45,227 bases of DNA from Chiloscyllium plagiosum (lineage: Eukaryota): assembly GCF_004010195.1 (NCBI RefSeq), contig NC_057718.1, positions 591,773-636,999 on the forward strand, given 5' to 3'. Below the pieces are notes generated by a model, which was not told where the DNA came from, searched no databases, and was given only the letters and a program-made list of their open reading frames with translations. The position numbers and the translations under genes were made by a program. Below are positions 6,201 through 44,895 of the stretch, in pieces. Within the stretch, counting starts at the first letter, position 1, and each line of letters opens with the position of its first letter.

Positions 6201-8209
6201 TCTCTCGGACTGGCGCAGTGACGACATTGTCCTGAGGGGTCGATCTCGGACTGGTGCAATGACCACCTTGTCCTGAGGGGGGGCGATCTCGGCCTGGCGC
6301 AGTGACCACCTTGTCTAGAGGGTGGCGATTTTGGGACTTGTGCAGTGACCACCTTGTCCTGAAGGAGGCAATCTCGGACTAGTGCAGTGACCACCTTGAC
6401 CTGAGGGGTGTTCTCGGACTGGTGCAGTGACCACCTTGTCCTTAGTGGGGTGCAATCTCAGACTGTTGCAGTGACCACCTTGTCCTGAGGGGGGGGGGCG
6501 ATCTCGGACTGGTGCAGTGACCAGCTTGTCCCGAGGGGGGGCGATCTCGGACTGGTGCAGTGACCACATTGTCCTGAGGAGGTGTGTTCTTGGACTGGTG
6601 CCGTGACCACCTTCTCCTGAGGGGTCTTCTCGGACTGGTGCAGTGACCACCTTGTCATGAGTGGGGCAATCTCAGACTGGTGCAGTGACCACCTTTTCCT
6701 GAGGGGTGTTCTCAGACTGGTGCAGTGACCACATTGTCCTGAGGAGGGCGATTTCGGACTGGTACAGTGACCACCTTGTCCTGAAGGAGGCGATCTCGGA
6801 CTGGTGCAGTCACCACCTTGTCCTGAGGGGTGCGATTTCGGACGGTTGCAGTGACCACATTGTGCTGAGGGGGCGATGTCGGATGAGTGCAGTGACCACC
6901 TTGTCCTGAGGTGACGTTCATGGACTGATGCAGTGACCACCTTGTCCTGAGTGGGAGGCGATCTCGGACTGGTGCAGTGACCAGCTTGTCCTGGGGGGGG
7001 GGTGTTCTTGGACTGGTACAATGACCACCCTGTCCCAAGGGGGTGAGATCTCGGACTGGTGCATTGACCACCTTGTCCTGAGGGGGCATTCTCGGACTGG
7101 TGCAGTGACCACCTTGTCCTGAGGGGTGATCGCAGACTGGTGCAGTGACCACCTTGTCCTGAGGGGGACGATCTTGGACTGGTGCAGTGACCACCTTGTC
7201 CTGAGGGGTCTTCTCGGACTGGTGTAGGGGGGGCGATCTCGGACTGGTGTAGTGACCACCTTGTCCTCTCGTGGGGTGATCACGGACTGGTGCAGTGACC
7301 ACCTTGTCCTGAGGGGGCCGATCCTATACTGGTGCAGTGACCACCTTGACCTGAGGGGTGTTCTCGGGCTGGTGCAGTGACCACATCGTCCTGAGAGGTG
7401 TTCTTGGACTGGTGCAGTGACCACCTTGTCCAGAGGGGTTGATTTCGGGACTGGTGCAGTGACCACCTTGTCCTGAGGGGGTTGTGCTCGAACTGGTGCA
7501 GTGACCACCTTGTCCTGAGGGGGGTGATTATGGACTGGTGCAGTGACCACATTGTGCTGAGGGGTCGATGTCGCACTAGTGCAGTGACCACCCTGTCCTG
7601 AGGAGGGCGATCTTGGACTGGTGCAGTAACCACCTTGTCCTGAGGGGTGTCCTGGGCCTGGTGCAGCGAGCACCTTGTCATGAGGGAGGCGATCTCGGAC
7701 TGGTGCAGTGACCACCTTCTCCTGTGGGGTCTTCTCGGATTACTGCAGTTACCACCTTGTCCTGAGGGGTCGATCTCGGACTGGTGCAGTGACCATCCTG
7801 TCCAGAAGGAGGCGATCTCGGACTAGTGCAGTGACCACCTTGACCTGAGAGGGCAATCTCAGACTGGTGCTGTGACCATCTTGTCCTGAGGGGGGTGGTT
7901 TCGGACTGGTGCAGTGACTACATTGTGCTGAGGGGGCGATGTCGGACTAGTGCAGTGACCACCTTGTCCTGAGGAGGGCGATCTTGGACTGGTGCAGTGA
8001 CCACCTTGTCCTGAGGGGCGATCTCGGACTGGTGCAGTGACCACCTTGTCCTGAGGGGCGTTCTCGGAATACTGCAGTGACCATATTGTCTTGAGGGGGG
8101 GGATCTCGGACTGGTGCAGTGACCACCTTGTCCTTAGTGGGGTGCAATCTCAGACGCAGTGACCACCTTGTCCTGAGGGGCGATCTCGGACTGGTGCAGT
8201 GACCACCTT
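3270..8209. repeat. GC-rich minisatellite, ~38-42 bp unit GACTGGTGCAGTGACCACCTTGTCCTGAGGGG(n)CGATCTCG, >100 copies
   Basis: Directly visible; unit length varies through a G-run; source of all QDKVVTAPVRDRP-type ORFs. Confidence 0.97.
3722..4036 (-). mobile_element. HE1-like tRNA-derived V-SINE inserted in the minisatellite
   Basis: Reverse complement has Pol III box A (TGGCACAGTGG), box B (GGTTCAATTCC), V-domain TGTGGAGTTTGCACATTCTCCCCGTGTCTGCGTGGG and (TAATC)n tail. Confidence 0.92.
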
Positions 8210-8210
8210 N

Positions 8211-11200
8211 ACACAGTTCTATAGTTGAGGAAACACAGTTCTATAACTGAGGAAACACTGTTCTATAGTTGAGGAAACACAGTTCTATAGTTGAGAAAAC
8301 ACAGTTCTATAGATGAGAAAACACAGTCCTATAACTGAGAAAACACAGTTCTATAGTTGAGAAAACACAGTCCTATAGTTGAGAAAACACTGTTCTATAG
8401 TTGAGAAAACACAGTTCTATAACTGAGAAAACACAGTCCTATAATTGAGAAAACACAGTCCTTTAACTGAGAAAACACAGTTCTATAGTTGAGAAAACAC
8501 AGTTCTATAACTGAGAAAACACAGTTCTATAGTTGAGAAAACACATTTCTATAACTGAGAAAACACAGTTCTATAGTTGAGAAAACACAGTCCTATAACT
8601 GAGAAAACACAGTTCTGTAGTTGAGAAAACACTGTTCTATAGTTTAGAAAACACAGTCCTATAACTGAGAAAACACAGTTCTATAGTTGAGAAAACACAG
8701 TCCTATAACTGAGAAAACACAGTTCTATAGTTGAGAAAACACAGTTCTAGAGCTGAGAAAACACAGTTCTATAGTTGAGAAAACACAGTTCTATAGCTGA
8801 GAAAACACAGTTCTATAACTGAGGGAACACTGTTCGATAGCTGAGAAAACACTGTTCTATAGTTGAGAAAACACTGTTCTATAGTTTAGAAAACACAGTC
8901 CGATAACTGAGAAAACACAGTTCTATAACTGAGATAACACAGTTCTATAACTGAGAAAACACAGTTCTATAGCTGAGAAAACAAAGTTCTATAGTTGAGG
9001 AAACACAGTTCTATAGCTGAGAAAACACAGCTCTATAGCTGAGAAAACACAGTTCTATAGCTGAGAAAACACAGTTCTATAGTTGAGGAAACACAGTTCT
9101 ATAGCTGAGAAAACACAGTTCTATAGCTGAGAAAACACAGTTCCATAGTTGAGGAAACACAGTTCTATAGCTGAGAAAACACAGTTCTATAGCTGAGAAA
9201 ACACAGTTCCATAGTTGAGGAAACACAGTTCTATAGCTGAGAAAACACTGTTCTATAGCTGAGAACACACTGTTCTATAGCTGAGAAAACACAGTTCTAT
9301 AGTTGAGGAAACACAGTTCTATAGCTGAGAAAACACAGTTCTATAGCTGAGAAAACACTGTTCTTTAGCTGAGAAAACACAGTTCTATAGCTGAGAAAAC
9401 ACTGTTCTATAGCTGAGAACACACTGTTCTATAGCTGAGAAAACACTGTTCTATAACTGAGAAAACACAGTCCTATAACTGAGAAAACACAGTTCTATAA
9501 CTGAGAAAACACAGTTCTATAGCTGAGAAAACACAGTTCTATAGCTGAGAAAACACTGTTCTATAGCTGAGAAAACAAGTTCTATAGTTGAGGAAACACA
9601 GTTCTATAGCTGAGAAAACACTGTTCTATAACTTAGAAAACACAGTTCTATAGCTGAGAAAACACAGTTCTATAGCTGAGAAAACACTGTTCTATAACTG
9701 AGAAAGCACAGTTCTATAGCTGAGAAAACACTGTTCTATAACTTAGAAAACACAGTTCTATAGCTGAGAAAACACAGTTCTATAGCTGAGAAAACATTGT
9801 TCTATAGCTGAGAAAACACTGCTCTATAGCTGAGAAAACACTGCTCTATAGCTGAGAAAACACAGTTCTATAGTTGAGGAAACACAGTTCTATAGCTGAG
9901 AAAACACTGTTCTATAGCTGAGAAAACACTGTTCTATAGCTGAGAAAACACAGTTCTATAGCTGAGAAAACACAGTTCTATAGTTGAGGAAACACAGTTC
10001 TGTAACTGAGGAAACACAGTTCTGTAGCTGAGAAAACACTTCTATAACTTAGGAAACACTGTTCGAGAGTTGAGGAAACACAGTTCTATAACTGAGAAAA
10101 CACTGTTCTATAGTTGAGAAAACACTGTTCTATAGTTGAGGAAACAATGTTCTATAGTTGAGGAAACACTGTTCTATAGTTGAGGAAACACTGTTCTATA
10201 GTTGAGGAAACACTGTTCTATAGTTGAGAAAACACTGTTCTATAGTTGAGAAAACACAGTTGTATAACTGAGGGAACACTGTTCGATAACTGGGGAAACA
10301 CAGTTCTATAACTGAGGAATCACAGAGCTATAGCTGCGGATGCACAGTTCTATAACTGAGGAAAGAGAGTTCAATAGCTGAGGAAATACAGTTTTATAAC
10401 TGAGGAAACTCAGTTCTATAGCTGAGGAAACAGGTGTATAACTGAGGAAACACTGTTCTATAACAGAGGAAACACAGTTCTATAACAGAGGAAACACAGT
10501 CAGAGGAAACACAGTTCTATAACAGAGGAAACACAGTTCTATAACAGAGGAAACACAGTTCTATATCTGAGGAAACACAGTTCTATAACAGAGGAAATAC
10601 TATTCTATAGTTGAGGAAACACAGTTCTATAACTGAGCAAACACTGTTCTATAGCTGAGGAAACACTGTTCTTTGGCTGAGGAAACACAGGTCTGTAGCT
10701 AAGGAAACAGTTATGTAACTGAGGAAATACTGTTCTGTAGCTGAGGAAACTCTGTTCAAAAGCTGAGGAAACACTGTTCTGGTAGCTGAGGAAACATTGT
10801 TCTATAGCTGAGGAAACACTGTTCTGTAACTGAGGAAACACAGATCTATAGTTGAGGAAATACTATTCTCTAGCGGAGGAAACACTTTTCTTTAGCTGAG
10901 GAAACACAGGTCGGTAGCTAAGGAAACACAGTTCTGTAACTGAGGAAACACAGTTCTATAGTTGAGGAAATACTGTTCTGTAGCTGAGGAAACACTGTTC
11001 AAAAGCTGAGGAAACACTGTTCTGGTAGCTGAGGAAACATTGTTCTATAGCTAAGGAAACACAGTTCTGTAACTGAGGAAACAGTTCTATAGTTGAGGAT
11101 ACATAGTTATGTAACTGAGGTAACACAGTTCTGTAGCTGTGGAAATACTGTTCTATAGCTGAGGAAACACAGGTCGGTAGCTAAGGAAACACAGGTCTGT

Positions 11201-12516
11201 AACTGAGGAAACACAGATCTATAGTTGAGGAAATACTGTTCTGTAGCTGAGGAAATTCTGTTCTACAGTTGAGGAAACACAGGTCGGTAGCTGAGGAAAC
11301 ACAGGTCTGTAACTGAGGAAACACAGTTCTATAGTTGAGGAAATACTGTTCTGTAGCTGAGGAACCTCTGCTCTATAGCTGAGGAAACAGAGTTCTGTAG
11401 CTGAGGAAATACTGTTCTCTAGCGGAGGAAACACAGGTCTGTAGCTGAGGAAACACATTTCTTTAGCTGAGGAAACACAGTTCTGTAGCTAAGGAAACAC
11501 AGTTCTATAACTGAGGAAACCCTGTTCTATAGCTGAGGAAACACAGTTCTGTAGCTGAGGGAACACAGTTCTATAACTAAGGAAGTAGTGTTCGATAGAT
11601 GAGGAAACACAGTTCTATAACTGAGGGAACACTGTTCGATAACTGGGTAAACACAGTTCTATAGCTGAGGAAACACAGTTCTATAACAGAGGAAACTCAG
11701 TTCTATATCTGAGGAAACACAGTTCTATAACAGAGGAAATACTATTCTATAGTTGAGGAAACACAGTTCTATAACTGAGCAAACACTGTTCTATAGCTGA
11801 GGAAACACTGTTCTTTAGCTGAGGAAACACTGTTCTTTAGCTGAGAAAACACAGTTCTTTAGCTGAGGGAACACTGTTCTGTGGCTGAGGGAACACTGTT
11901 CTGTGGCTGAGGGAACACAGTTCTGTAGCTGAGGAAACACTTTTCTTTAGCTGAGGAAACACAGTTCTATAGCTGGAAATGTGTTGCTGGAAAAGCGCAG
12001 CAGGTCAGGCAGCATCCAGGGAACAGGAGNNNNNNNNNNNNNNNNNNNNNNNNNNNNNNNNNNNNNNNNNNNNNNNNNNNNNNNNNNNNNNNNNNNNNNN
12101 NNNNNTTCTCCTCAAAGACAGTTCTATAGTTGAGGAAACACAGTTATGTAACTGAGAAAACACAGTTCTGTAGCTGTGGAAACACAGGTCTGTAACTGAG
12201 GAAACACAGATCTATAGTTGAGGAAATACTATTCTCTAGCGGAGGAAACACTTTTCTTTAGCTGAGGAAACACAGGTCGGTAGCTAAGGAAACACAGTTA
12301 TGTAACTGAGGAAACACAGTTCTATAACTGAGGAAACCCTGTTCTATAGTTGAGGAAACACAGTTCTATAACTGAGGAAACACTGGTCTGTAGCTGTGGA
12401 AACTCTGTTCAACAGTTGAGGAAACACACTTCTGGTAGCTGAGGAAACACTGTTCTCTAGCTGAGGAAACACAGCTCTATAGCTGAGAAAACACAGTTCT
12501 ATAGCTGAGGAAACAG
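8211..12516. repeat. 22-bp minisatellite ACACAGTTCTATAGCTGAG(G/A)AA, roughly 190 visible copies, runs into an N gap
   Basis: Directly visible; 22-aa periodicity in minus ORFs (3 x 22 bp) agrees. Confidence 0.97.
11975..12115. mobile_element. Penelope-derived terminal-repeat element in the 22-bp array, centre lost in N gap
   Basis: ATGTGTTGCTGGAAAAGCGCAGCAGGTCAGGCAGCATCCAGGGAACAGGAG identical to the arm at 37012-37062; TTCTCCTCA after the gap matches the element end at 42681-42689. Confidence 0.75.
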
Positions 12517-13023
12517 NNNNNNNNNNNNNNNNNNNNNNNNNNNNNNNNNNNNNNNNNNNNNNNNNNNNNNNNNNNNNNNNNNNNNNNNNNNNNNNNNNNN
12601 NNNNNNNNNNNNNNNNNNNNNNNNNNNNNNNNNNNNNNNNNNNNNNNNNNNNNNNNNNNNNNNNNNNNNNNNNNNNNNNNNNNNNNNNNNNNNNNNNNNN
12701 NNNNNNNNNNNNNNNNNNNNNNNNNNNNNNNNNNNNNNNNNNNNNNNNNNNNNNNNNNNNNNNNNNNNNNNNNNNNNNNNNNNNNNNNNNNNNNNNNNNN
12801 NNNNNNNNNNNNNNNNNNNNNNNNNNNNNNNNNNNNNNNNNNNNNNNNNNNNNNNNNNNNNNNNNNNNNNNNNNNNNNNNNNNNNNNNNNNNNNNNNNNN
12901 NNNNNNNNNNNNNNNNNNNNNNNNNNNNNNNNNNNNNNNNNNNNNNNNNNNNNNNNNNNNNNNNNNNNNNNNNNNNNNNNNNNNNNNNNNNNNNNNNNNN
13001 NNNNNNNNNNNNNNNNACTCTAT

Positions 13024-13385
13024 GAAACAGAGTGAAAGAAAAAACAGAGTGAAAGAGAAACAGTGTGAAAGGAATTCATACTGAAACAGAAACCGATTGC
13101 TAGAGAAACCTAGTGCCAGAGAAACCGAATGAAAGAGAAACTAAGTGCCAGAGAAACAGACTGAAACAGAAACAGACTGAAAGAGAAAGAGCGTGCCAGA
13201 GAAACCGAGTCAAAGAGAAACCGAGTGCCAGAGAAACCGAGCAAAAGGGAAACTGAGTGTAGGAGAAACTGAGTGAAAGAGAAACTAAGTGAAAGAGAAA
13301 CAGTTTGAAACAGAAAGAGAGTTATTCAGAAATGGTGTGAAAGAAAGAGAGTGAAAGAGAAACAGAATGCTGGGGAAACAGAGTG
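13024..13385. repeat. Purine-rich degenerate ~16-17 bp repeat (GAAACAGAGTGAAAGA)
   Basis: Directly visible. Confidence 0.85.
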
Positions 13386-14175: not shown

Positions 14176-14488
14176 CTGTAAACAGAAGAGGGAGCGAGAC
14201 TCTGACTCAGAGACAAAAAAACTGCAGATGCTGGAATCCAAAGTAGACAGGCTGGAGGCTGATGCTGCCTGGCTTGCTATGTTCATCACTTTTTAATTCA
14301 TTCATTTATTCATTGAAACTTCCCTCCAGCTGAGTCCCAGAGCAGCCAGAGATAAACCCACAGATACAAAACACATAGAAAAAGGGAGTTAAACACATCT
14401 CAATGGATTCACCACTAATAGAACAGAGACCCCAGGAAAGACACACAAACATAGAAACACACACTAGTGCATACACTTGTATACATTA

Positions 14489-14657
14489 TGATTTGGAGAT
14501 GCCGGTGTTGGAGTGGAGTGTACAAAGTTAAAAATCACACAACACCAGGTTATAGTCCAGCAGGGACTATCACCTGATGAAGGAGCGTCGCTCCGAAAGC
14601 TAGTGTGCTTCCAATTAAACCTGTTGGATTATAACCTGGTGTTGTGTGATTTTTAAC
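14489..14657 (+). mobile_element. Hairpin-shaped Penelope-derived insertion with 13-bp flanking direct repeat
   Basis: ~45-bp inverted arms (14520-14564 / ~14620-14665); CTTGTATACATTA at 14476-14488 and 14658-14670. Confidence 0.8.
14571..14605 (+). ncRNA. Minimal type I hammerhead ribozyme motif
   Basis: CAC-CTGATGA-A-GGAGC-gtc-GCTCC-GAAA-GCTA-GTG: both catalytic boxes, 5-bp stem II, 3-bp stem I, palindromic AGCT in place of stem III. Confidence 0.8.
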
Positions 14658-15065
14658 CTTGTATACATTAGCACACAAACACAGCTATAAACACATAGTG
14701 ATGGTTCTACAGAGATAGACACACTCATAAAAACAGAGACAGAAACACACACAAATACAGAGGAACACACACATGCAGACACACACAGAAACACACAAAC
14801 AAATACAAACACACGGTCACAGGCTCGCACTGAGACACAGACACTTACATACAGAGAAACATAGAAACATACAATCACAGACATACACACACATAGGGAT
14901 AGACACACTGACGGAATCAGAGAGAAACACATATAGAAACAGAGACAAATACAGGAACACAGAGGCACTCAGAGAAACATACAGATATACTGACACAGAG
15001 AGACATGGAGAGAGAGAGAGAAGGTTTCTGGGTCTCTCTCCCAAATGCTGCTGTCTGTGTTTAAT

Positions 15066-15814: not shown

Positions 15815-16155
15815 AAAACAAAGATACTAGAGATCTAAAACAAAATACAAATTGCTGGAGAACCTCAGCAAGTCTGACAGCGTCTGTGAAACACTCCCAG
15901 AAATTTAAGATTCTGCCAGATCCAAATAGCCCAAAGATCGATGATGTCAGGAGAAGGCTGAAAGGAAATCAGATAGAGGGTTTTTAAATCCTGAGTGGGC
16001 TGGATGGAGTAGATAGGAATAAGAATGAGACGGGTTCTGGTCTGAAGAGTCATACTGGACTCAAAACATTAGCTGTTTTTCTCCACAGGTGCTGCCAGAC
16101 CTGCTGAGTTTTTCCAGTAATATCTGCTTCTTTTGTTTCAGATTTCCAGTATCTT
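15815..16155. mobile_element. Old Penelope-derived inverted-repeat element
   Basis: Arms TTGCTGGAGAACCTCAGCAAGTCTGACAGCG / TGCTGCCAGACCTGCTGAGTTTTTCCAGTAA; decayed CTGAAGA..GACTCAAAACATTA box at ~16042-16070. Confidence 0.6.
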
Positions 16156-16625
16156 TGTTTAATCATCATTATTTCAGATTTCCAGCACTGGGGGGCATTA
16201 TTTCACCCTTACAGGAGAGAGAGGGTGGAGAATAAAGGCAGTGTGTGAAAGAAGGAGAGAGGAATAATTCTTTCACTGAACGGGTGGTTAGAGTCCAGAA
16301 ATTCATTGCCTGGAAAAGGGGTAGGAGGCATTCAAAAGGGCAATGGATAGTTATTTGGATAGAAATGGTAAGTGTGGAGAATATGGGGAAAAGGCAGGAG
16401 ATTGACACAAGGTAAGGAAGGTCGTTTGAAGAGCTAATTCAGGTAAAGGGGCATCCATCTGCACTGTAACCATTCTGTCACATTGGTATGTCTTAAACAT
16501 TTTCTTTTTCATGGGAGGTGTAGAACTTAAACAAAAGAAAAATGGGTTTGCTTCCCGGGGAATTAACTGTGGTGTGGGATGGTGCCAAAATATTTCAAAG
16601 TGTCTCTGCTGTCATAATCGTTTGT

Positions 16626-19604: not shown

Positions 19605-22600
19605 GAGTAATTGTGCCTTAGTGTCCAGGGATGTGCAGGTTAGGGTGGATTGGCTATGCTAAATTACCCATAGTGCTTAGTAATGTGCAGGTTAAGGTGG
19701 ATTGATCGTGCTAAATTGTTCCAAAGTGCCCAAGGATGTGCAGGTTAAAGTGGATTGGTTATGCTAGATTGTCCATAATGTCCAGGATGTTCAGTTTAGG
19801 GTGGATTGGCCTTGCTGAATTGTCCTGTTTTGCCCCAGGTCTGCGCAGATTAGGGAGGATTGGCCATGTTTAATTTGTCCCATAGTCTTCAGGGATATAT
19901 CGGTTAGAGTGGATGGGCCATGTTAAATTACCCATAGTGCTCAGAGATGTGCAGTTTAGTCTGGATTGGCCATGCTAAATTGCCCCATAGTATCCAGGGA
20001 TGGGCAGGTTAGACTGAATTGCCCATAATAAATTGTCCCATAGTGCCTAATGACGTGCAGGTTAGGGTGGATTGGTAATGCTAAATTGCCCATTGTGTCC
20101 AGAGATGTGCAGGTTATTGTGGATTGACTGTGTTAAATTACCCATAGTGTCCAGAATGTGCAGGTTAGGGTGGATTGACCAGGCTAAATTACCCCGTAGC
20201 ATCCAGGGATTTGCAAGTTAGGGCGGATTGGCTATATTAAATTATCCAGGTAAAACAAGGGCTGCAGATGCTGGAAGCCAGATTCTAGATTAAAGTGGTG
20301 CTGGAAAAGCACAGCAGTTCAGGCAGCATCCGAGGAGCAGGAAAATCGACGTTTTGGGCAAAAGCCCTTCATCAGGAATGTGCCCTTCCTGATGAAGGGC
20401 TTTTGCCCAAAACGTCGATTTTCCAGCTCCTCGGATGCTGCCTGAACTGCTGTGCTTTTCCAGCACCACTTTAATCCATATTAAATTATCCATAATGCCC
20501 AGGGATATGCAGGTTAGGATAGATTTGTTGCGCTAAGTTGTCCCATAGTGCCCAGGGATGAGCAGGTTAGGGTGGATTGGCCATGCTAAATTACCCCCTG
20601 GTGTTCAGGGATGTGTAGGTTAGGGTGGATTGGCCATTCTAAATTATTCATAGTGACCAGGGATGTGTAGTTTAGGGTGGATTAGCCATGCTATATTACC
20701 CCATGGTGTTCAGGGATGTGTAGGTTAGGGTGGATTAGCCATGCTATATTACCCCATGGTGTTCAGGGATGTGTAGGCTAGGGTGGATTAGCCATGCTAT
20801 ATTACCCATAGTGCCCAGGGAAGTGCAGGTTAGTGTGAATTGGTCATGCTAAATTACCCGTAGTGCCCAGGGAAGTGCAGGTTAGGGTGGATTGACCATG
20901 CTAAATTACCCATAGAGCCCAGGGAAGTGCAGGTTAGGGTGGATTGACAATGCTAAATTACCCGTAGAGTCCAGGGAAGTGCAGGTTAGGGTGGATTGAC
21001 CATGCTAAATTACTCAGAGTGTCCAGCGAAGTGCAGGTTAGGGTGGATTGGTCATGCTAAATTATCCATAGTGCACAGGGAAGTGCAGGTTAGGGTGGAT
21101 TGACCATGCTAAATTACCCATAGAGCCCAGGGAAGTGCAGGTTAGGGTGGATTGACAATGCTAAATTACTCATAGAGTCCAAGAAAGTGCAGGTTAGGGT
21201 GGATTGACCATGCTAAATTACCCATAGTGCACAGGGAAGTGCAGGTTAGGTTGGATTGACCATGCTAAATTACTCATAGTGCACAGGGAAGTGCAGGTTA
21301 GGGTGGATTGACCATGCTAAATTACTCATAGTGTCCAGGATTTGCAGGTTAGGGTGGATTGACCATGCTAAATTACTCATACTGTCCAGGATTTGCAGGT
21401 TAGAGTGGATTGACCATGCTAAATTACTCATAGAGTCCAAGAAAGTGCAGGTTAGGGTGGATTGACCATGCTAAATTACCCATAGAGTCCAGGGAAGTGC
21501 AGGGTAGGGTGGATTGACCATGCTAAATTACCCATAGAGTCCAGGGAAGTGCAGGTTAGGGTGGATTGGTTATGCTAAGTAATCCATAATACCCAGGAAT
21601 GTGCAGGTTCGGGTGGGTTGGCCATGCTAAATCGTCCCGTTGTGTCAAGGGATATGTAGATTTAGCTGCATTGGTTATTCTAAGTTACCCATAGTGCCCG
21701 GGTATGTGAAGGCTAGGGTGGAATGTTCATGCTGAGTTGTCCCATAGTGCCCATGGATGTGCAGGTTAGGGTGGATTGACCATACTAAATTACCCATAGT
21801 GCCCATGGATGTGCAGGTTAGGGTGGATTGACCATGCTAAATTGTCTCCTAGTGTTCAGGGATAATTAGGTTAGGGTGGATTGACCATGCTAAATTACCC
21901 TATGGTTTTCAGCAAAGTGTAGGTTAGGGTGGATCGGCCATGCTAAATTACCCATAGTGCCTGGAAATGTGCAGTTTAGGGTGGGTTGGCCATGCTAAAT
22001 TCTCCCATAGTGTCCAGGGATGTGCAGGTTTAGTTGCATTGGCTATTCTAAATTACCCATAGTGCCCCAGTATGTGAAGGTTAGGGTGGATTATTCATAC
22101 TAAATTGTCCCATAGTGCCCAAGAAAATGCAGGTTAGAGTGGAGTGGCCATGTTAAATTACCCAGAGTCCAGGGAAGTGCAGATTATGGTGGATTGATTA
22201 TGCTAAATAATCCATAGTGCCCAGGATTGCGCACATTCAGGTGGGTTGGTCATGCTACATTGTCTTGTAATGTTCGGGGATATGTAGGTTAGGGTAGATT
22301 GACCATGCTAAATTCCCCTATGGTGTTCAAGCATGTGTAGGTTAGGGTGGATTAGCAATACTAAATTATTCATAGTGCCCAGGGATGTGTAGGTTAAACT
22401 GGATTGGCCTTGCTAAATTACCCCATGGTGTTCAGGGATGTGTAGGTTTGGGTAGACTGGCCACGCTAAATTGTCCCGTAGTGCCCAGGGATGTGTAATT
22501 TAGGAAGGATTGGCTGTGCTAAATTGTTCTGTAGCTTTCAGGGATATGTAGGTTAGGGTAGATTGACCATGCCAAATTACCCCATGGTGTTCAGACATGT

Positions 22601-22884
22601 ATAGGTTAGGGTGGATTGGCAATACTACATTACCCATAGTGCCCAGGGATGTGCAGGTTAGGCTGGATTAGCCATGCTAAATTATTCATAGTGACCAGGG
22701 AGGGTGGAGTCGCCAGGCTAAATTGTCCCATAATGTCCAGGGATATGCAGTTTAGACTGGATTGGCCACGATAAATTAACCCATGGTTTTCAGGGATGTG
22801 TAGGTTAGGGTGGATTAGCCATGCTAAATTAGCAATAGTGCCCAGGGAAGTGTAGGTTACGGTGGGTTGGCCATGCTCAATTGT
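19605..22884. repeat. 52-bp minisatellite derived from the HE1 SINE core, ~55-60 copies
   Basis: Unit CCATAGTGCCCAGGGATGTGCAGGTTAGGGTGGATTGGCCATGCTAAATTAC aligns to SINE segment 16765-16821. Confidence 0.95.
20249..20477. mobile_element. Palindromic Penelope-derived insertion with two back-to-back hammerhead-like boxes
   Basis: ~90-bp arms (one mismatch seen) around TGTGCCC; 15-bp duplication ATATTAAATTATCCA at 20234-20248 and 20478-20492. Confidence 0.88.
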
Positions 22885-23467: not shown

Positions 23468-23543
23468 ATGATCTATTCCTCTTGATACTGTCACATCCCT
23501 ACCCTGATCACATCCATGAGATATTAATTAGTTACACTGATTC

Positions 23544-23632
23544 ATTCCTGATGAAGGGTTTTTGCCCGAAACATCAATCTCCTGCTCCTTGGATGCTGTC
23601 TGACCCACTGTGCTTTTCCAGCAACACTCTCC
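23544..23632 (+). mobile_element. Penelope-derived end with hammerhead core
   Basis: CTGATGA(23548-54)-A-GGGT-tttt-GCCC-GAAA-CATC; ACGT palindrome decayed to ACAT. Confidence 0.7.
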
Positions 23633-24599
23633 CGACTACAGAGTCAGAAACATTTGCAGCACAGAAGCCATAAGACTGAAATGGGCTCACAGTGGAGCTA
23701 TCTAGTCTTTTCTTACAGCCCTGACAGTTTATTTTCAGGTCCTCATCACATAATCTTGTAAACATCTAACAAACCTCCTCTCAATCTCATTTACGCCATG
23801 GAAAATGAATCCAATTTCACCAAACCTATATCTTAGATAAAATTTCAATCCTTGGGAATCACTCTGGTAAATCTCCACTGACCCGCTCAATGAACTTATC
23901 TTTCAGAAAGTGTGTTGCATATTGCGATTCCCTAAGAACGGAAATTTCTTAGTAGTGTGCTGTGTAGTATGAGATTTCATTTAACAGCTACTACAACAGT
24001 AATTAACTTTCCAAAACACGGAGGTCACAATGCCCACTAAACTAATGCTAACAGTTTATCGGGTGCCAAGTGCACCCTCATATCAGAGCATTGTTTCTGA
24101 AATGTTTTGTTCTTGGAAGGAATGAAAGCCACGCCTCAGATGATGTTGGGCAAGGGAACAACAATCACCTAACATCATGAATGGCTGTCCCATGGCCACT
24201 GACCAAAAGGATTCAGATAATTGATGGACACAGTGGAAGTTACCTGCCCTAGAAATAAGGTACAGTAAGTGCCCAGAGCAGAGGGGAGTTCTTTTCTGGG
24301 TAGTTCTCATCAAGCAGACCTTGGAAGCAGCAGTTCTCATTGGGTGGTCTCCAGGCAACAGTTTTCATTGAGCAGTCCCCACTAGGCAGATGAAAGATGG
24401 ACCAGAGGGGAAGAGGAAGACCAAGGGAAGGGCTCACTAACTCCTTGGCCAGAGAGCAGGATGCTGCCCCCATCACTTGTACAAGACCAAAGCATTCCAT
24501 GCCAGTAGTCTGTTTACCCTCTGCTATCATTGCACCATGCCCAATCGTCACAGTTGTATATTTTCTTTATCTAATTAAGTAATGGATCAAATCTAAACT

Positions 24600-25680
24600 G
24601 CTACTTCTTAACAAACTCAATAAACTCTGAAAATTACTTACAGCTTGGCAATCACCTATATTAGATAGCTTACATCACAGATACTCTAAAATCAACAGCT
24701 GGGCTTTATCATTACTACATCCATCTTCCAAGATCAATGCACATGCTCTCCAAGTCCCTCTTTCACAACTCACTTGTTAGAATAATGCCATTAAATTTAT
24801 ATTGTCCCTCTACAGTCATTTTGCCAAAATATATCATTTCACAGTTTCCTGTATTAAAGTCCATCTGACACCTGTCAACTCATTTTATTCGTCTATGACT
24901 TGCTGCAGTTGTTTGGCGCCCTAATTCTTTGTCCCTCCTCCAAATTTGCAATCATTGTCAAAGTTTGAAATTTAATCTGTATTCCAATATCCAAGAATAA
25001 ATCCATTTGTACATTATTGTAGCACTGATTCTGGAAATATCCAGCACCACTCTAATCTAGAATCTGGTTTCCAGCATCTGGGGATCTTGTTTTTACCTCC
25101 CTGAAAAACTGCAAGTCAATGATTGCTGTCCAAAAGCCAATTTTTATTCAAGCTGGCGATGATCCTTCTAACCCATGAACCACAATCTTATGAACCAATC
25201 TTTTTGTATGTTACCTTGTCAAATGCTTTCTTAAAATCTACTTGAACCACATTGATTGCTCTCTCGCTATCAAAATCCTAGATTTCAAAAAGATTCAAAA
25301 TAATTACTCAAATGAAATTTGACTTTTATAATCTGTGCTAGCTCTCTTTAATTAACTCAAACTTCTCTAAGTTGTCTGTTAATATTTCCTCTCGTTAATA
25401 TTTCAAAAACCTAACCCACCACTGATCTTAAACCAAAATAGAAACAGAAATTGCTGAAGAAACTCAGCAGGTCTAGCAATATCCACTGAGAGAGAAAGTT
25501 AATATTTTAAATTCAATATGACTTCAACAGACCACATTTTATTTCAGATTTCCAGCATCACAGTATTGTGCTTTCAACCGATATCAAACTAATTGGCCTT
25601 AAGTCACCAAACTGGGCTCACACTATTTCTTGAATAAGTGTGTCATATCTGCAACTCTCCAATCCTTTGGTAACTTCACA
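24600..25680 (-). mobile_element. Ancient CR1 RT fragments with small Penelope-derived pieces inserted
   Basis: Minus strand PKDWRVADMTHLFKK, DFKKAFDKV and FDNDCKFGG (FADD-like) remnants. Confidence 0.6.
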
Positions 25681-26574: not shown

Positions 26575-27535
26575 GTGTACTATATACCTTATACTGTACA
26601 CCTTATACTGTACACCTTATACTGTACACCTTATACTATACACCTTATACTGTATACCTTATACTATACACCTTATACTTTACACCTTATACTATACAAC
26701 TTATACTGTGCACGTTATACTGTACACCTTATACTGTACACCTTATACTATACATCTTATACTATACACCTTATACTGTACACGTTATACTGTACACCTT
26801 ATACTGTACACCTTATACTATATATCTTATACTATACACCTTATACTGTACTCCTTATACTATACACCTTATACTGTATGCCTTATACTATACACCTTAT
26901 ACTATACACCTTATACTGTACACCTTATACTGTACACCTTATACTGTATACCTTTTACTGTACACCTTATACTGTACACCTTATACTATACACCTTATAC
27001 TGTATACCTTATACTATACACCTTATACTATACACCTTATACTGCACACCTTATACTGTACACCTTATACTATACACCTTATGCTGTATACCTTATACTA
27101 TACACCTTATACTATACAACTTATACTGTACACGTTATACTGTACACCTTATACTGTACATCTTATACTATACATCTTATACTATACACCTTATACTGTA
27201 CACGTTATACTGTACACCTTATACTATACGTCTTATACTGTACACCTTATACACCTTATACTATACACCTTATACTGTACACCTTATATTATACACCTTA
27301 TACTGTACATCTTATACTGTACACCTTATACTGTACACCTTATACTATGCATCTTATACTGTACACCTTATACCAAACACCTTATACTATACATCTTATA
27401 CTGTACACCTTATACTGTACACCTTATACTATACATCTTATACTATACACCTTATACTATACACCTTATACACCTTATACTATACAACTTATACTATACA
27501 ACTTATACTGTACACCTTATACTATATACCTTACA
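26575..27535. repeat. 14-bp minisatellite TATACT(G/A)TACACCT inside the Rex1 RT
   Basis: Directly visible; lies between EGCVFS and HDCVVKF of RT motif B. Confidence 0.96.
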
Positions 27536-28040
27536 CTTTCATGACTGTGTGGTCAAATTCAGCTCGAACTCCATTTACAAATTTGCTAATGACACCACTG
27601 TAGTGGGTCAGAACTCAAATGACGACAAGACAGAGTAGAAGAAGGGGACAGACAGCTTAGTGGCATGGTGTAAACACAACACGCTGTCCCTCAATGTCAG
27701 GAAGCAGAGTGAACACGCTCCTGCCTGTATAAATTGTGCTGAGGTGGAGCTGGTCGAGTGCTTTAAGCTCCAAGGAGTAAACATCACCAATGATCTACTT
27801 CCTCATTAGGCCAAGGAAATTTGGCATGTCCACAAGGACTCTTACTAATTTTACAGATGTACTATAGAAAGGAACCTATCCAGATGCATCACAGCTTGTT
27901 ATGCCAACAGCTCTGCCCAGGAACACAGGAAATTACAGAATGTTAAGATCACAACCCAGTCCATTTCAAAAACCAGACTTCGTTCCATTGACCCCACCTC
28001 CACATCCCACTGCCTCAGGGAAACAGCCAACATCATCAAT

Positions 28041-34599: not shown

Positions 34600-36170
34600 A
34601 CTTACATTAGGAATTTGGTTAAGTGCCACACAACAGATTTGTAAGGGAAGTTATAGGTCTTCATATAAAAGAGACAGGAGCAACAAAACTGGCTGAGTGA
34701 TAGGAAACAGAGAGGAATAGTCAACGGATATGTTTCAGCTATTCAGGAAAGTTCTGCAGGGGTCAGTGTTGGGACATTTGCTTTTGCTGGATCTGTATGC
34801 CAAGATCCAACAATTTGGATCTTGGCATACAGAGTACAATGGTAAAGATTGCAGATGATACAAAACTTGGAAAGATTTCTGAGGAGGACAGTGCAGAACT
34901 CCAAAAGACATTGACAAACCATTGGAGTGGACATATAGATGGTGGATAAAGTTCAATACAGAGAAACTGAGTGATGCATTGTGGTGTAAAGCACAGACAG
35001 CAGCAGCAAAATCTGTGGAACAACCCCCCATCAAAGCAGCCTCAGTACCTGAGGCACTAACAGTTCTGCATATTCCTATGTGTCCCATCGAAAGACCAAT
35101 TAATGGACATATCGCCTTAAACTCAGAAAATGAAATGTCTGCTTGGTTTTGGAGTTATAGAAGTCTACTGCACAGGAAAAAGGCCCATCAGCCTATCAAC
35201 TCTGCACCAGGAAAGAGCCACCACCAAACTACATTAAAAACAGAGACTGCTGGAGTGCTGGTCACTGAAATCAAAATGTTAACTCTGTTTTCTCTTTACA
35301 CATGCTGCCAGACGGCCTGAGTTTCTCCAGCAATTTCTGTTTTTGTTTGTTTCAAATCCAGTACCTGCAGTTCTTTTCTCTTATTCATTTAACTATTCTA
35401 ATCCCACTTTCCATCACTTGACCCATAGCCCTGTGTGCCCTGGCATTGCAAGTGCACATCTAAATATTTCTTAAATGTCATCCTTACAGGAAGTGAGTTC
35501 CAGATTCTCAACATCCTCTGAGTTAAAAAAAAACTTCACTCACATCCCCCCAAATCTCCTGTCCCCTAACTTAAATCTATACTTCCAGCCATTTACCCCC
35601 CGCTTCCCCCCACCAAGGGGAAAAGTTTCTTGTGCCTCCCATAATATTATGCATCTCAGTCCTGGCCCCCAATTAGTACTATCTGCTCCAAGGAAAACAA
35701 AAGATGTGTGGGTTTGGTGGATTTGCTCAATTGCCCAAAAGTATCCAACGATGTTCAGACTAGGTGGATTAACAATTGGAAATGCAGGGTTACAGGGATG
35801 GGGAGGGGCAGGTCTAGGTGGGATGTTCTTCGGGGAGTCAGTGCAGACTCGATGGGTTGAACAGCCTGCTTCCACATCGTAGGGATTCTATGATTTCATT
35901 CACTCCGGTTTATTCGATGTCCCTTCATGATTAAAACCATGATAGCACCTTCTTCAGTGCTATCACATCCGTCTTATAATATGGAGTATAGAACCACATA
36001 CAACACTGCAGCTGTGGTCTAACCAATGTTAGTTACAGCATCATCTCCTTTCCCTTAGACTCTGTACCTCAGCTAATTAAGGCAAATATCCCATACACCT
36101 TTTTAATCACTTTATCTACCTGTTGCACTACCTTCAAAGGACCAGTGGACATTCACACCAAGGTTCACCA
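34600..36170. mobile_element. Patchwork of old CR1, SINE (35700-35895) and Penelope-end (35260-35375) fragments
   Basis: KIADDTKLG..LQKDIDK motifs on +; CR1 3' remnants on -; SINE 3' half. Confidence 0.55.
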
Positions 36171-36967
36171 GATTGTCAAAGCATCCCAGAGTCATACTGA
36201 TCATCATGTTTTGGGGATTTGTATTTGCTAAATAAATAAGAAAATGGAAAACTAGCTCTTCTGGACAGTCCCAATTCCCTGTGACAGGAACAGAAATCAC
36301 TGGCGAAACTCAGCAGATTGGCAGCATCTGATAAACAGTTGCCAGATTTGAAACGTTAACTCAACTTTCTTCCCATAGATGCTGCCAGACCTGCTGACTT
36401 CTGTTTTATTTCAGATCTCCAATATCTGCAGTTCTTTGTTTTATTTTAGTGCCCGGTTACCTGTGTTTCGTTGTTGGCTGCTCCTGGGTGATAATCCTGT
36501 CGACACATTTACCATCAGGGAGCCCGAAGCCAACTTGAAGTTGAAAGGGAAGAGCTGACTTCTCTTGAATTTCTGAAGAGGAAAGATAATTGAAATCCTG
36601 CAAATTCTAACATATTAGAAACATCTCATTGGCTTTTCTACGTTTCGTTTATTTAACTTAAAATTCAGACATTACTTGTTAATCAAATGATCTTAGATCA
36701 AACTGGGTTTAGTGGTTCAATTTGTTGCAAACTGTTTCTTGCTAAATGGTAAGATTTATTATTACTGAATAAGCTCAATGTTTTATCATTACACTTTGTT
36801 ATATGCAGTAATTTTACAGAAGTGTTACATGCCAGACGATCTTCTTAAACAGTACTGTTTGGTCTAATCTTAATTTTGCAAGCTGCATCAATTTCTTTTG
36901 GAGGGTTTTCTACTGTGAGCCCTAGCGAGATTTTTTGTTATCTCTTACCAAACACATCTCATTACCT

Positions 36968-37180
36968 GGGGAGAAAGTGAGGTCTGCAGATGCTGGAGAT
37001 CAGAGCCGGAGATGTGTTGCTGGAAAAGCGCAGCAGGTCAGGCAGCATCCAGGGAACAGGAGAATCGACGTTTCGGGCATAAGCCCTTCCTGAAGAAGGG
37101 CTTATGCCCAAAACGTCGATTCTCCTGTTCCCTGGATGCTGCCTGACCTGCTGCGCTTTTCCAGCAACACATCTCCGGCC
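36968..37180. mobile_element. Palindromic Penelope-derived insertion with 15-bp TSD
   Basis: Inverted arms meeting at ~37090; CACATCTCATTACCT at 36953-36967 and 37181-37195; CTGAAGA-A-GGGC-ttat-GCCC-AAAA-CGTC. Confidence 0.9.
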
Positions 37181-37349
37181 CACATCTCATTACCTACTTG
37201 CCTGACCTCATGGTGTCCCACACATTCAATGCTAGAGCATTCTTACCATGCACCATTCCCAAAACAACCTACCACTCACCAGGTATCCACCAACAGGCCA
37301 ACATCCCTGACACCCAGACAAGCACCTGCATTCCAGAGCTGCCCTTCTT

Positions 37350-40155: not shown

Positions 40156-40750
40156 TTACATTAAAGAAATTTTATGAGGCTTGAATGACAGTGACAATCT
40201 TCGTGAATTCTATGTACGTGTTGATTATTCTCAAGTCTCTCTGTCTTTGCACTCTTTGATCTTTTTATGTCTTTCAGCTCGTTATTGGCGCTGTCTTTCT
40301 GTGACTCAGACCAGACACTTTGGAAACCTGTCTCATAATATTCCAGAGTTACTGTCCACCTCCTTAACCAAACTCTTCATCACGCAATGTTACCTCCTTT
40401 GATTTGATTGGACTTATTATTGTTGTGTGTACCTAAGTACAGTGAAAAGTTTGGTTTTGCATACAGTACAGCAGATTATAACAAAAAATAATAGGGTTAT
40501 TGCACAGTCTAAAGAATACCAAGTTATATGCTGCAAAGAAAGTGTACAAAAAGTTAGATCAACATTAGATTTGAAATTTGAAGTCCATTCAGAAGTCTAA
40601 TAAAACGGAAGAACCTGTTGGTGTTTTGCTGGTCCTTTGGCTCAGCATCATCTATTTTCCCTTTACATTACCTTTTAAGTGGCTTGCACTTTTTAAAATA
40701 ATTAAACAGGCTGTTTTAGTGAAAATTATTGATAAGACACTGCTTTCTCT

Positions 40751-40873
40751 AAGAGAAAGTGAGGACTGCAGATGCAGGAATTCTTGATGAAGGGCTTATG
40801 CCCAAAAGGTCGATTCTCCTGGTCCTCGGATGCTGCCTGAACTGCTGTACTTTTCCAGCACCACACTACCAAT
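40751..40873 (+). mobile_element. Short Penelope-derived insertion with 12-bp TSD in RPL7L1 intron 1
   Basis: ACTGCTTTCTCT at 40739-40750 and 40874-40885; decayed TTGATGA-A-GGGC-ttat-GCCC-AAAA. Confidence 0.8.
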
Positions 40874-41197
40874 ACTGCTTTCTCTCCCATTATCTAATTG
40901 TCTATACATTCAAGAACTCATATCGCATAGTGAGTCCCAGGCAGTGTGGAGATCAAATAGAAGTTGGGAAGCTAACAATGTGTGCAGTGTTGAGGAAACT
41001 GAAACTGCACAACCATTTGCAGAAAGAGAAACCGTATCCTAGATACCCTTTAGGATCCCAAAGTGTAAAGGACCAATGCAGCCTCTCAAACTTTGAGGCA
41101 TCCTTTGCTTTTTCTTTGTTTTGAATGTGCTTTAATCTGAAGTCTGCAGATTTGATAATAAACTTGCTGTGTGTAATAAACATGTTTATTTTGTCAG

Positions 41198-41854: not shown

Positions 41855-43190
41855 AGCATGATTTCCTTTTAACAAAACCATATTGGCTCTGCTTGATTAT
41901 CTTAAACTTATCCAAGTGCCCTATTATAATATCTTTAATCACAGCTTCTAACATTTTCCTATGAATGGATTACTGTGTGCAGTTCTGGTTATCACACTGT
42001 TGGAAGGATTGGAGTGCAGAGGAGATTAACCGTAGTGTTGCCTGGGATGGAAAGCCTCAGTTATGAGGAGAGACTGGATTTGTTGTTGTCTCCAAGCAGT
42101 GAACTAATCGAGTGGTTTGACCCAGTGTTACATTGTTACCGTTTCTGAGTACACTTGGTGCTGGTAATTATCCTGCTTTTGACTCTTAAAGGTATACCCA
42201 CATCTTCATAACATAAGCCAGTACTCTGTCTTCACTTTGGAAAAGAAGGGTGTAGGTACAGAATTTGGGAAGATGGGCTGTGAGGTTCTTCATGTTGACA
42301 TTGACAGTAAGGAGATATCGGTGGTTTTGGCAGGCTTGAAAGTGGTCAGGTCCCTAGATCGGGATCAGCTGTCAGAGGTGTAGAAGGAAATGACAGGGAT
42401 TCTGATTCAAGTTTTTAATTCCTCTTTGGCTACAGAGGGGGTGCCAGAGGACTCGAGGGCAGCTAATGTAGTTCTACTTTTCTGGTAGGGTTAAACCAGG
42501 GAACTACGGGTAGGGAAACTAATTCATTTTTGCAATAGTCTCTACTTGGAGAGGCAAATGGCTGAAGAAGGGCTTATGCCCGAAACGTCGATTCTCCTGT
42601 TCCCTGGATGCTGCCTGACCTGCTGCGCCTTTCCAGCAACACATTTTCAGCTCTGATCTCCAGCATCTGCAGACCTCACTTTCTCCTCAATGTGGAGTTC
42701 ATCCAAGCCTTTGGCCAGTCCCATATGGGCGCCTCATAAAGAAGGTAAAAGCACATGGGATCCAGGGGACTTGTCAAGATGAATGCATCATTGGTTTATG
42801 GTAGGAGATGGAATATGGGGGTGGGGGAAAACATGAGTTTGGCCACATGGTTAATTGAACAAAGAAGAACAGTATGTCACAGGAACGGGCGCTTCGGCCC
42901 TCCAATTATGTGCCAACACATTCTCCCCTTCTGTACTAAAACTGTCTTCACTTACAGGATCTGTCTACCTTGATTCCCTTCCTATCCATGTATTTGTTCA
43001 GGTGCTTCTTGAAGGCTGCTATTGTGTCTGGTTTCACCACCTCCTCTGGCAACATGTTCCAGAAACTTGCCACCCTTTGTGTGAAAAACTTGTCTCATAA
43101 ATCTGTTTTAAACCTCTGCCATCCGCACCTTGAACCTGTATTCCTGAGTAATTGACCCCTCCAACTGGGAAAAAGCCTTCTACCGTTTCT
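41855..43190. mobile_element. Old CR1 fragments in both orientations
   Basis: YCVQFWLSH..LPGMESLSYEERLD, GVPEDSRAANVVLLF and tail remnants. Confidence 0.6.
42562..42689 (+). mobile_element. Penelope-derived end starting at an intact hammerhead core
   Basis: CTGAAGA-A-GGGC-ttat-GCCC-GAAA-CGTC (42562-42589) followed by the full family 3' sequence; stem I partner appears truncated. Confidence 0.85.
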
Positions 43191-43808
43191 TCCTCTTCCA
43201 CCAATCCAACCAGTACCCTTCCACTGACACACTCAGTCCATTGGCTGAACTGCTCCTCACCCGCAACAATTTCTCCTTTGAATCCTCCCACTTCCTTCAG
43301 ACCACAGGGGTGGCCATGGGCCCCAGCTATGCCTGCTTCTTCATCAGCTACATCAGCACCATTTCCCCCCATCCCTTTCCTCCGCTACATCGATGTCTGT
43401 GTAGCTCCCACGAGGACATTGAATAGTTCATCAACTTCACAAACACCTTCCACCCTGACCACAAGTTCACCTGGACTATCTCGGTCACTTCCCTTCCTGG
43501 ACTTCTCTATCTCCATCTCCATCTATTTCTAACTCCATCTCCATTTCTGGCGATTGATTCAACACGGACGACTACTTCAATCCCACCGACTCCCACAGCT
43601 GCCTGAACTACAGCTCCTCCCACCCTGCCTCCGGTAAAAAAGCTATCCCTTATTCCTAATTCCTCTGCCTTTGTCGCATCAGCTCCCAGGAGGACCATTT
43701 CCACTCCAGAACATCCCAAATGGCCTCCTACTTCAAGGACTACAATTTCCCCTCGCATGTGGTCAACAGTGCCCTCCAGTGCATCTCCATCTCCTCCATC
43801 TCCACCCT
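43190..43808 (+). mobile_element. Penelope-like RT fragment
   Basis: AELLLTRNNFSFESSHFLQTTGVAMGPSYAC, FLRYID, LPFLD motifs; frameshifted. Confidence 0.85.
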
Positions 43809-43809
43809 T

Positions 43810-44895
43810 AAGACCATAAGATATAGGAGTGGAAGTAAGGCCATTCAGCCCATCGAGTCCACTCTGCCATTTAATCATGGCTAATGGGCATTTCAACTCC
43901 ACTTACCAGCATTCTCCCCGTAGCCCTTAATTCCTTGTGACATCAAGAATATATCAATCTCTGCCTTGAAGCCATTTAGTGTCCCGGCCTCCACCACTCC
44001 GCGGCAATGAATTCCACAGGCCCACCACTCTCTGGCTGAAGAAATGTCTCCGCATTTCTGTTCTGAATTTACCCCCTCTAATTCTAAGGCTGTGCCCATG
44101 GGTCNNNNNNNNNNNNNNNNNNNNNNNNNNNNNNNNNNNNNNNNNNNNNNNNNNNNNNNNNNNNNNNNNNNNNNNNNNNNNNNNNNNNNNNNNNNNNNNN
44201 NNNNNNNNNNNNNNNNNNNNNNNNNNNNNNNNNNNNNNNNNNNNNNNNNNNNNNNNNNNNNNNNNNNNNNNNNNNNNNNNNNNNNNNNNNNNNNNNNNNN
44301 NNNNNNNNNNNNNNNNNNNNNNNNNNNNNNNNNNNNNNNNNNNNNNNNNNNNNNCATTTGCTCACATTGAATTCCATCAGCCATTTCCTGGACCACTCTC
44401 CCAAACTGTCTAGATCCTTCTGCAGCCTCCCCCTTTCCTCAGTACTACCTGCCTGTCCACCTAACTTCATATCATCGGCAAACTTCGCTAGAATGCCCCC
44501 AGTCCCTTCATCCAGATCATTAATATATAACGTGAACACCTGCGGCCCCAACACTGATCCCTGTGGGACACCGCTTGTCACTGACTGCCATTCCGAAAAA
44601 GAACCTTTTATCCCAACTCTCTGCCTTCTGTCAGACAACCAATCCTCAATCCATGCCAGTAACTTACTTCGAACACCATGGGCCCTCACCTTACCCAGCA
44701 ACCTCCCATGTGGCACCTTATCAAAGGCCTTTTGGAAGTCGAGATAGACCACATCCACTGGGTTTCCCTGGTCTAACCTACTTGTCACCTCTTCAAAGAA
44801 TTCTAACAGGTTTGTCAGGCACGACATTCCCTTACTAAATCCATGTTGACTTGTTCTAATCTGACCCTGCTCTTCGAAGAATTTAGAAACCTCAT
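43810..44895 (-). mobile_element. CR1 LINE RT to tail (gap inside)
   Basis: SQHGFSKGMSCLTNLLEFFE, YLDFQKAFDKVPH, GVPQGSVLGP, KFADD. Confidence 0.93.

Follow-up and report, generated by a model that had tools for sequence, protein, structure and literature searches.

The analysed window, a stretch of 45,227 nucleotides from the shark Chiloscyllium plagiosum (contig NC_057718.1, positions 591,773 to 636,999), contains four small foldback insertions. Each is flanked by an exact target-site duplication of variable length (13, 15, 15 and 12 bp), and the coordinates (14489–14657, 20249–20477, 36968–37180 and 40751–40873) and duplication lengths given in the initial annotation proved exact. At 36.9 kb, two identical 15-bp copies on the forward strand (36953–36967 and 37181–37195) enclose an inverted arm on the reverse strand (36968–37089) and a direct arm on the forward strand (37090–37180). 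The inverted arm consists of a 37-nt tail (36968–37004) and the body, stops 5 nt inside the hammerhead box, and matches the solo copy at 42567–42689 at 96% (blastn); the direct arm runs from hammerhead position C3 to the inner end (90 nt), is followed by one extra base, and carries a G12>A exchange at 37110. The 14.5 kb foldback (14476–14670, with 13-bp duplications at 14476–14488 and 14658–14670) comprises an inverted arm at 14489–14564 with a 38-nt tail, a 9-nt spacer, and a direct arm at 14574–14657 in which the minimal hammerhead core is intact. The 20.2 kb foldback (20234–20492, with 15-bp duplications at 20234–20248 and 20478–20492) has an inverted arm at 20249–20380 with a 39-nt tail, a 5-nt filler (20381–20385) and a direct arm at 20386–20476, with G12>A in both arms. 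It is hosted by a tandem array of approximately 52-bp units that extends over more than 3 kb (19609–22882). The 40.7 kb insertion (40739–40885, with 12-bp duplications at 40739–40750 and 40874–40885) contains an inverted piece consisting of tail only (40751–40779) and a direct arm with a decayed hammerhead (40780–40873).

The insertions at 36.9, 20.2 and 40.7 kb form one group, with 68–78 of 80 nt alike, and the 14.5 kb insertion did not match the other three in blastn searches with default or permissive scoring, in agreement with the two unrelated sequence families distinguished initially. At three of the four sites (14.5, 20.2 and 36.9 kb) the inverted arm spans the stretch covered by the direct arm plus 38, 39 and 37 nt further out, respectively, and thus carries a one-sided tail of 30–40 nt. 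The direct arms end 84, 88, 90 and 90 nt after C3. A layout common to all four, an inverted 3′ end followed by a sense copy starting at the hammerhead box, had been proposed; it holds overall, except that the start of the direct arms lies between 0 and about 9 nt upstream of the minimal box (in element orientation) and that the inverted part at 40.7 kb comprises only the outer ~27–29 nt of the tail and is barely a foldback. Within a site the arms differ little (1 mismatch in 85 nt at 36.9 kb, 1 in 91 nt at 20.2 kb and 2 in 38 nt at 14.5 kb). The terminal repeat contains a predicted ribozyme, a minimal type I hammerhead recognized by its sequence pattern. According to a pattern scan and inspection, the predicted core is intact only at 14574 and 42562, and damaged or missing in every other arm. 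A search against Rfam yielded no hammerhead match, only sub-threshold matches to miRNA hairpins, and the predicted folding stability of single arms was not unusual (z from −0.07 to −1.53). Since the direct arms continue beyond the predicted cut site by at least about 28 nt, the template was uncut there. Motif and architecture make these ends candidate termini of full-length Penelope elements.

The flanking repeats are unlikely to be fortuitous: exact flanking repeats of at least 12 nt occurred around 30 of 10,000 random segments of 120–230 nt (masked arrays excluded), and 29 of these lay in two unmasked tandem clusters (2.3–2.5 and 3.3–3.7 kb) and the last was the site at 36.9 kb. The best proof of a true duplication is the arithmetic of the array at 20.2 kb. 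The interrupted array unit measures 296 nt (52 + 229 + 15), and removal of the insert and one duplicate leaves exactly one 52-bp unit, which agrees with another array unit in 43 of 52 positions. The duplications have an A + T content of 58–87% compared to 55% for the window.

Further Penelope-like element (PLE) pieces are scattered over the window. A probable fifth foldback of opposite orientation, belonging to a young subfamily, lies inside a 22-bp satellite (11961–12129). It consists of a tail-less arm (11971–12029), a tail end (12106–12113) and a candidate 12-bp duplication, the host being satellite sequence, and its centre coincides with an assembly gap of 76 Ns. Long stretches of this satellite, interrupted by assembly gaps, occupy 8080–13100, and at 26578–27537 a 14-bp unit is repeated in tandem about 69 times. 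Three single copies in forward orientation were found: one extending from the hammerhead to the tail end with an intact core (42562–42688), one from the hammerhead to the inner end (23542–23639), and a short one covering the tail region only (25040–25098). A duplication was sought at all three and found at none. In comparison with another CR1 copy, the copy at 42562 replaced approximately 158 nt of a CR1-like LINE (left flank score 103 versus a shuffle maximum of 77; the right flank is significant only at the protein level), and a contig of organism C has 98 other letters in its place. At least one further PLE-like family has left older, decayed ends at 36286–36450, 25425–25574, 2633–2729, 15822–16163 and 35264–35385; two of them resemble inverted pairs, with no convincing duplication (one 10-nt near-match at 2.7 kb). 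The region 14180–14290 resembles an inverted tail-bearing PLE end followed by a few direct-arm bases, and is possibly another decayed small foldback.

A broken internal PLE reverse transcriptase (RT) gene fragment lies on the forward strand at 43184–43806 (tblastn E 2e-54 to protein P0001). It contains frameshifts and stops and is attached to no terminal repeat or hammerhead end. P0001 showed weak matches to RVT_1 and GIY-YIG below the Pfam cut-offs, the RT fragments of the window themselves matched no Pfam family, and the sole match to the PLE fragment of the window was a Chiloscyllium punctatum protein with 70% identity. No read-through from the ends into an attached RT/GIY-YIG open reading frame was detected among 155 PLE-like proteins or by direct search, and metagenome contigs and prokaryote genomes yielded no matches to further loci. 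Just after the RT fragment, at 43809–43885, is the start of a very abundant repeat with deep polyA RNA coverage that piles up at 43832–43834.

Four of 24 listed public runs were aligned to the segment 36000–43900 of the window, which covers the 36.9 and 40.7 kb sites. Contigs stopping at 42687, the tail end, numbered 639, 907 and 1029 in three runs, with AT-rich sequence of low agreement beyond; the outer end of the family is discrete. Past 40867 the consensus fades after about 7–10 letters, which fits an inner end. Before 42562, among the loose ends listed, 244 and 222 contigs in two runs carried loose sequence whose consensus fades about 8 letters on; this is only suggestive, because the alignment of any longer copy must stop at this position. 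The end family is very abundant and is represented in polyA RNA reads on both strands. In a polyA single-cell run the depth followed the repeat family, the unique bins next to 36.9 kb having none, so that these reads indicate transcription of the family only. RNA reads upstream of the end gave a 30-letter consensus (agreement 0.49–0.61), and transcripts longer than the end unit therefore exist. Among the RNA starts listed, none pile up at the hammerhead, a weak test given the fragmented polyA library.

The same runs bear on the age of the insertions. Contigs of organisms B and C show the direct arm at 40.7 kb continuous with its right flank; as this junction is common to both, the insertion is older than their split. 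On the other side the B and C contigs diverge from the window just ahead of the left duplication, their alignments ending at 40737 and leaving 76 and 78 letters unaligned, and another sample of organism A matches the window up to 40804. An organism C contig stopping at 36964 with 15 letters unaligned may hint at an empty 36.9 kb site. Among the 15 contig joints listed for the four runs, none skips the 36.9 or the 40.7 kb insertion.

Whether the head-to-head junctions are shared or unique had been named among the checks; within the window they are unique, since the centres differ at all four sites (n = 4, with the second family contributing one centre). At 36.9 kb, a 3-nt microhomology (37087–37089) is common to the inverted arm and the native upstream letters, which were taken from loose contig ends in the public runs. 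The 20.2 kb centre has the whole hammerhead box in both arms, and 4 of the 5 filler nucleotides represent a templated snap-back. In the 14.5 kb insertion, the inverted arm does not reach the box but ends roughly 45 nt downstream of it; a 7-nt inverted match may tentatively be read as a further snap-back. At 40.7 kb the tail stub is joined directly to the direct arm; an early-aborted cDNA is a simpler explanation of its short arm than a later deletion.

Taken together, each foldback is probably an independent, dead-on-arrival insertion of an EN-bearing PLE for which both target strands were primed. An RT/GIY-YIG protein would nick the two strands 12–15 nt apart. Judging from the anatomy of the arms and published in vitro data, one nick would prime cDNA synthesis at an outer start, yielding the tail-bearing inverted arm, and the other at an inner start 37–39 nt upstream, yielding the tail-less direct arm. 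Neither cDNA would extend beyond the 5′ edge of the uncut hammerhead, as the observed end positions indicate. Their ends would then be joined head to head via the 1–3 nt of microhomology seen in the sequence, sometimes after a short snap-back, and fill-in would yield the duplication. Priming of one strand only could result in a single copy without a duplication. The junctions and end positions are observed, and the order of events is inferred from them. Several observations agree with priming on both strands: the exact duplications and the restored array period at 20.2 kb, the one-sided tail of 38, 39 and 37 nt, the discrete outer end, four distinct centres, the lack of duplications in all three single copies, and the removal of target DNA by the copy at 42562. 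In a lizard PLE studied in vitro, both strands were cleaved and extended, two start sites bound the tail, and uncut RNA was the main template (PMC11167929). Neither twin priming in PLEs nor foldback stumps of shark PLEs were described in the literature searched, outside of which most subscription papers lie.

Counting against priming on both strands, a snap-back accounts for the 36.9 kb centre just as well. The second arm could have been produced by a single cDNA folding back to copy itself, with the tail trimmed by the endonuclease or by repair. Published PLE insertions with an inverted pLTR, a one-sided 31-bp tail and an 8–10 bp duplication (PMC3846280, PMC8557442) have been interpreted along these lines, the junction palindromes being attributed to self-priming (PMC3846280) and the tail to endonuclease resolution (PMC8557442). 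Short stems with 5-nt loops are readable at 36.9 and 20.2 kb and perhaps at 14.5 kb, and the near-identity of the arms within a site, including the G12>A common to both at 20.2 kb, fits self-copying. We nevertheless regard it as unlikely. The snap-back at 20.2 kb breaks off after 4 nt, where it is joined to an arm reaching further upstream, and the whole box in both arms together with a templated filler is not given by a plain self-copied hairpin; the inverted part at 40.7 kb is tail only; and the two tail-bounding RT start sites were demonstrated in vitro (PMC11167929). A different question is the nature of the template, which might be a short non-coding RNA of about 130 nt from the hammerhead edge to the tail, that is, a SINE-like PLE derivative, with the foldbacks as double-primed insertions. 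This is compatible with both-strand priming and differs in the template alone. In the 14.5 kb and the 36.9 kb family alike, the direct ends that bear a hammerhead (six of six) begin no more than about 9 nt upstream of C3, and the DNA-contig consensus upstream of 42562 fades after about 8 letters. However, a pause at the ribozyme accounts for these ends as well, longer transcripts are indicated by the upstream RNA consensus, and the RNA starts listed form no pile at the hammerhead, so that a short template deserves consideration but appears rather improbable.

The initial annotation had also considered that the foldback itself is a replicating non-autonomous unit, a MITE-like retrozyme moved by PLE enzymes. 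The comparable lengths of two of the insertions (213 and 229 nt), the use of one layout by two unrelated families, and the abundance of the end family with RNA on both strands would be in line with such a unit. A replicating palindrome should keep its centre, however, and with four different centres it is not supported. Its ends are asymmetric and its duplications variable, its hammerheads are opposed and mostly damaged with no copy containing direct tandem ones, single copies with the same ends exist, and RNA depth tracks the repeat family rather than the unique bins beside 36.9 kb. This interpretation is therefore very improbable, and the other option of the annotation, a stereotyped abortive insertion, is supported.

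That abortive insertion had been proposed to be primed by microhomology, and here the sites disagree. The 10-nt match between target and arm at 36.9 kb and the overlap of the duplication with the arm end at 14.66 kb reported earlier are both present. In an in-register comparison of the target with the continuation of the element, applied to three sites, agreement was found at 14.5 kb (7/10, p 0.006 versus window positions), partially at 36.9 kb (6/10, p 0.02) and not at 20.2 kb (3/10, p 0.5). The longest word common to the target and the last 60 nt measures 10 letters for the 36.9 kb site (p 0.011) and 7 for the 40.7 kb site (p 0.14); at both 14.5 and 20.2 kb it measures 6 (p ~0.4). Given that these tests were chosen post hoc with n = 4, the resemblance of the target to the element near the inner start at two of four sites is weak and a lead only. 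The 10-nt match at 36.9 kb is repeated, not shared across the junction, and thus is not simply an annealed primer. It is conceivable, if quite unlikely, that a dimeric enzyme primes both strands at the two RNA start sites and that pairing of nicked DNA with RNA near the inner start aids target choice or priming. Such pairing-assisted priming would contradict the “no homology” conclusion drawn for the in vitro lizard system, and the stumps would then record a PLE integration step that is still unsolved.

As elements, the foldbacks are ordinary: they are a form of a known PLE insertion and apparently not a new self-copying element. The steps by which PLE inverted copies, tails and duplications originate are described as not yet validated in the literature consulted. 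Because arms, centre and duplication fit within about 250 bp, insertions of this kind offer a large natural sample for studying this origin; the junction counts given here refer to this window only. The remaining interest is mechanistic and concerns both-strand priming versus self-priming as well as pairing-assisted priming. On the practical side, foldback stumps can pass for MITEs or miRNA hairpins, and they are a possible cause of assembly gaps such as the one beside the copy at 11971.

Among known systems, MITEs possess symmetric terminal inverted repeats at both ends, a fixed duplication length and uniform copies. The insertions described here differ in their asymmetric ends, one arm being 37–39 nt longer at the outer end, in their 12–15 bp duplications and in their four different centres. 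In L1 twin priming, cDNA synthesis is primed from each of the two target strands, microhomology serves to join the products, and the second primer anneals at variable internal sites. The proposed model shares with it the priming of cDNA from both strands and the microhomology joins; unlike in L1, the arms begin at two fixed sites 37–39 nt apart, and the product is therefore a palindrome.

Non-LTR retrozymes (PMC7229834; bioRxiv 10.64898/2026.07.22.740005) are likewise non-coding, hammerhead-bearing and related to PLE ends. They consist of direct tandem units with a complete type I hammerhead in each and are expressed as small circular RNA. This assignment was rejected since the shark stumps are inverted pairs with mostly damaged hammerheads. 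With the hammerheads of metazoan PLE pseudo-LTRs (Cervera and de la Pena, 2014, PMC4209133) the stumps share the core boxes, an extra base before stem II and a palindromic two-base helix III. That paper describes hammerheads paired on opposite strands at distances of 100–700 bp, as well as numerous single motifs that derive from truncated PLEs; a term search of it found no sharks, and most copies in the shark window are damaged. The Poseidon element of Anolis carolinensis, PAc (Frangieh et al., 2024, PMC11167929), resembles the stumps in having a hammerhead about 100 nt upstream of two tail-bounding RT starts and AT-rich targets, and in the cleavage and extension of both strands and a template uncut at the hammerhead, the strand and template steps being inferred for the stumps. 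Inverted copies and duplications are not treated in the main text of that study, according to which target and start site share no homology, unlike the two of four shark targets that resemble the element near the inner start.

The closest correspondence is with the insertion units of EN+ PLEs (Penelope/Poseidon, Neptune and Naiad; Arkhipova et al., 2013, PMC3846280; Craig et al., 2021, PMC8557442), which are reported to consist of an inverted, 5′-truncated copy head to head with a direct copy, with a 30–40 nt tail at one end only, a variable duplication, and a short overlap or palindrome at the inverted junction. An inverted 5′-truncated copy adjoins a direct copy at all four shark sites (with only ~27–29 nt of it at 40.7 kb), and the one-sided tail (three sites, the fourth retaining tail only), the variable duplication and a minimal hammerhead were found as well. 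The shark stumps differ from these units in having no open reading frame between the ends and in both copies being cut to about 30–130 nt, and from rotifer PLEs, with duplications of 8–10 bp, in their 12–15 bp duplications. The four insertions apparently represent the minimum-size form of the published EN+ PLE insertion unit, rebuilt at each landing.
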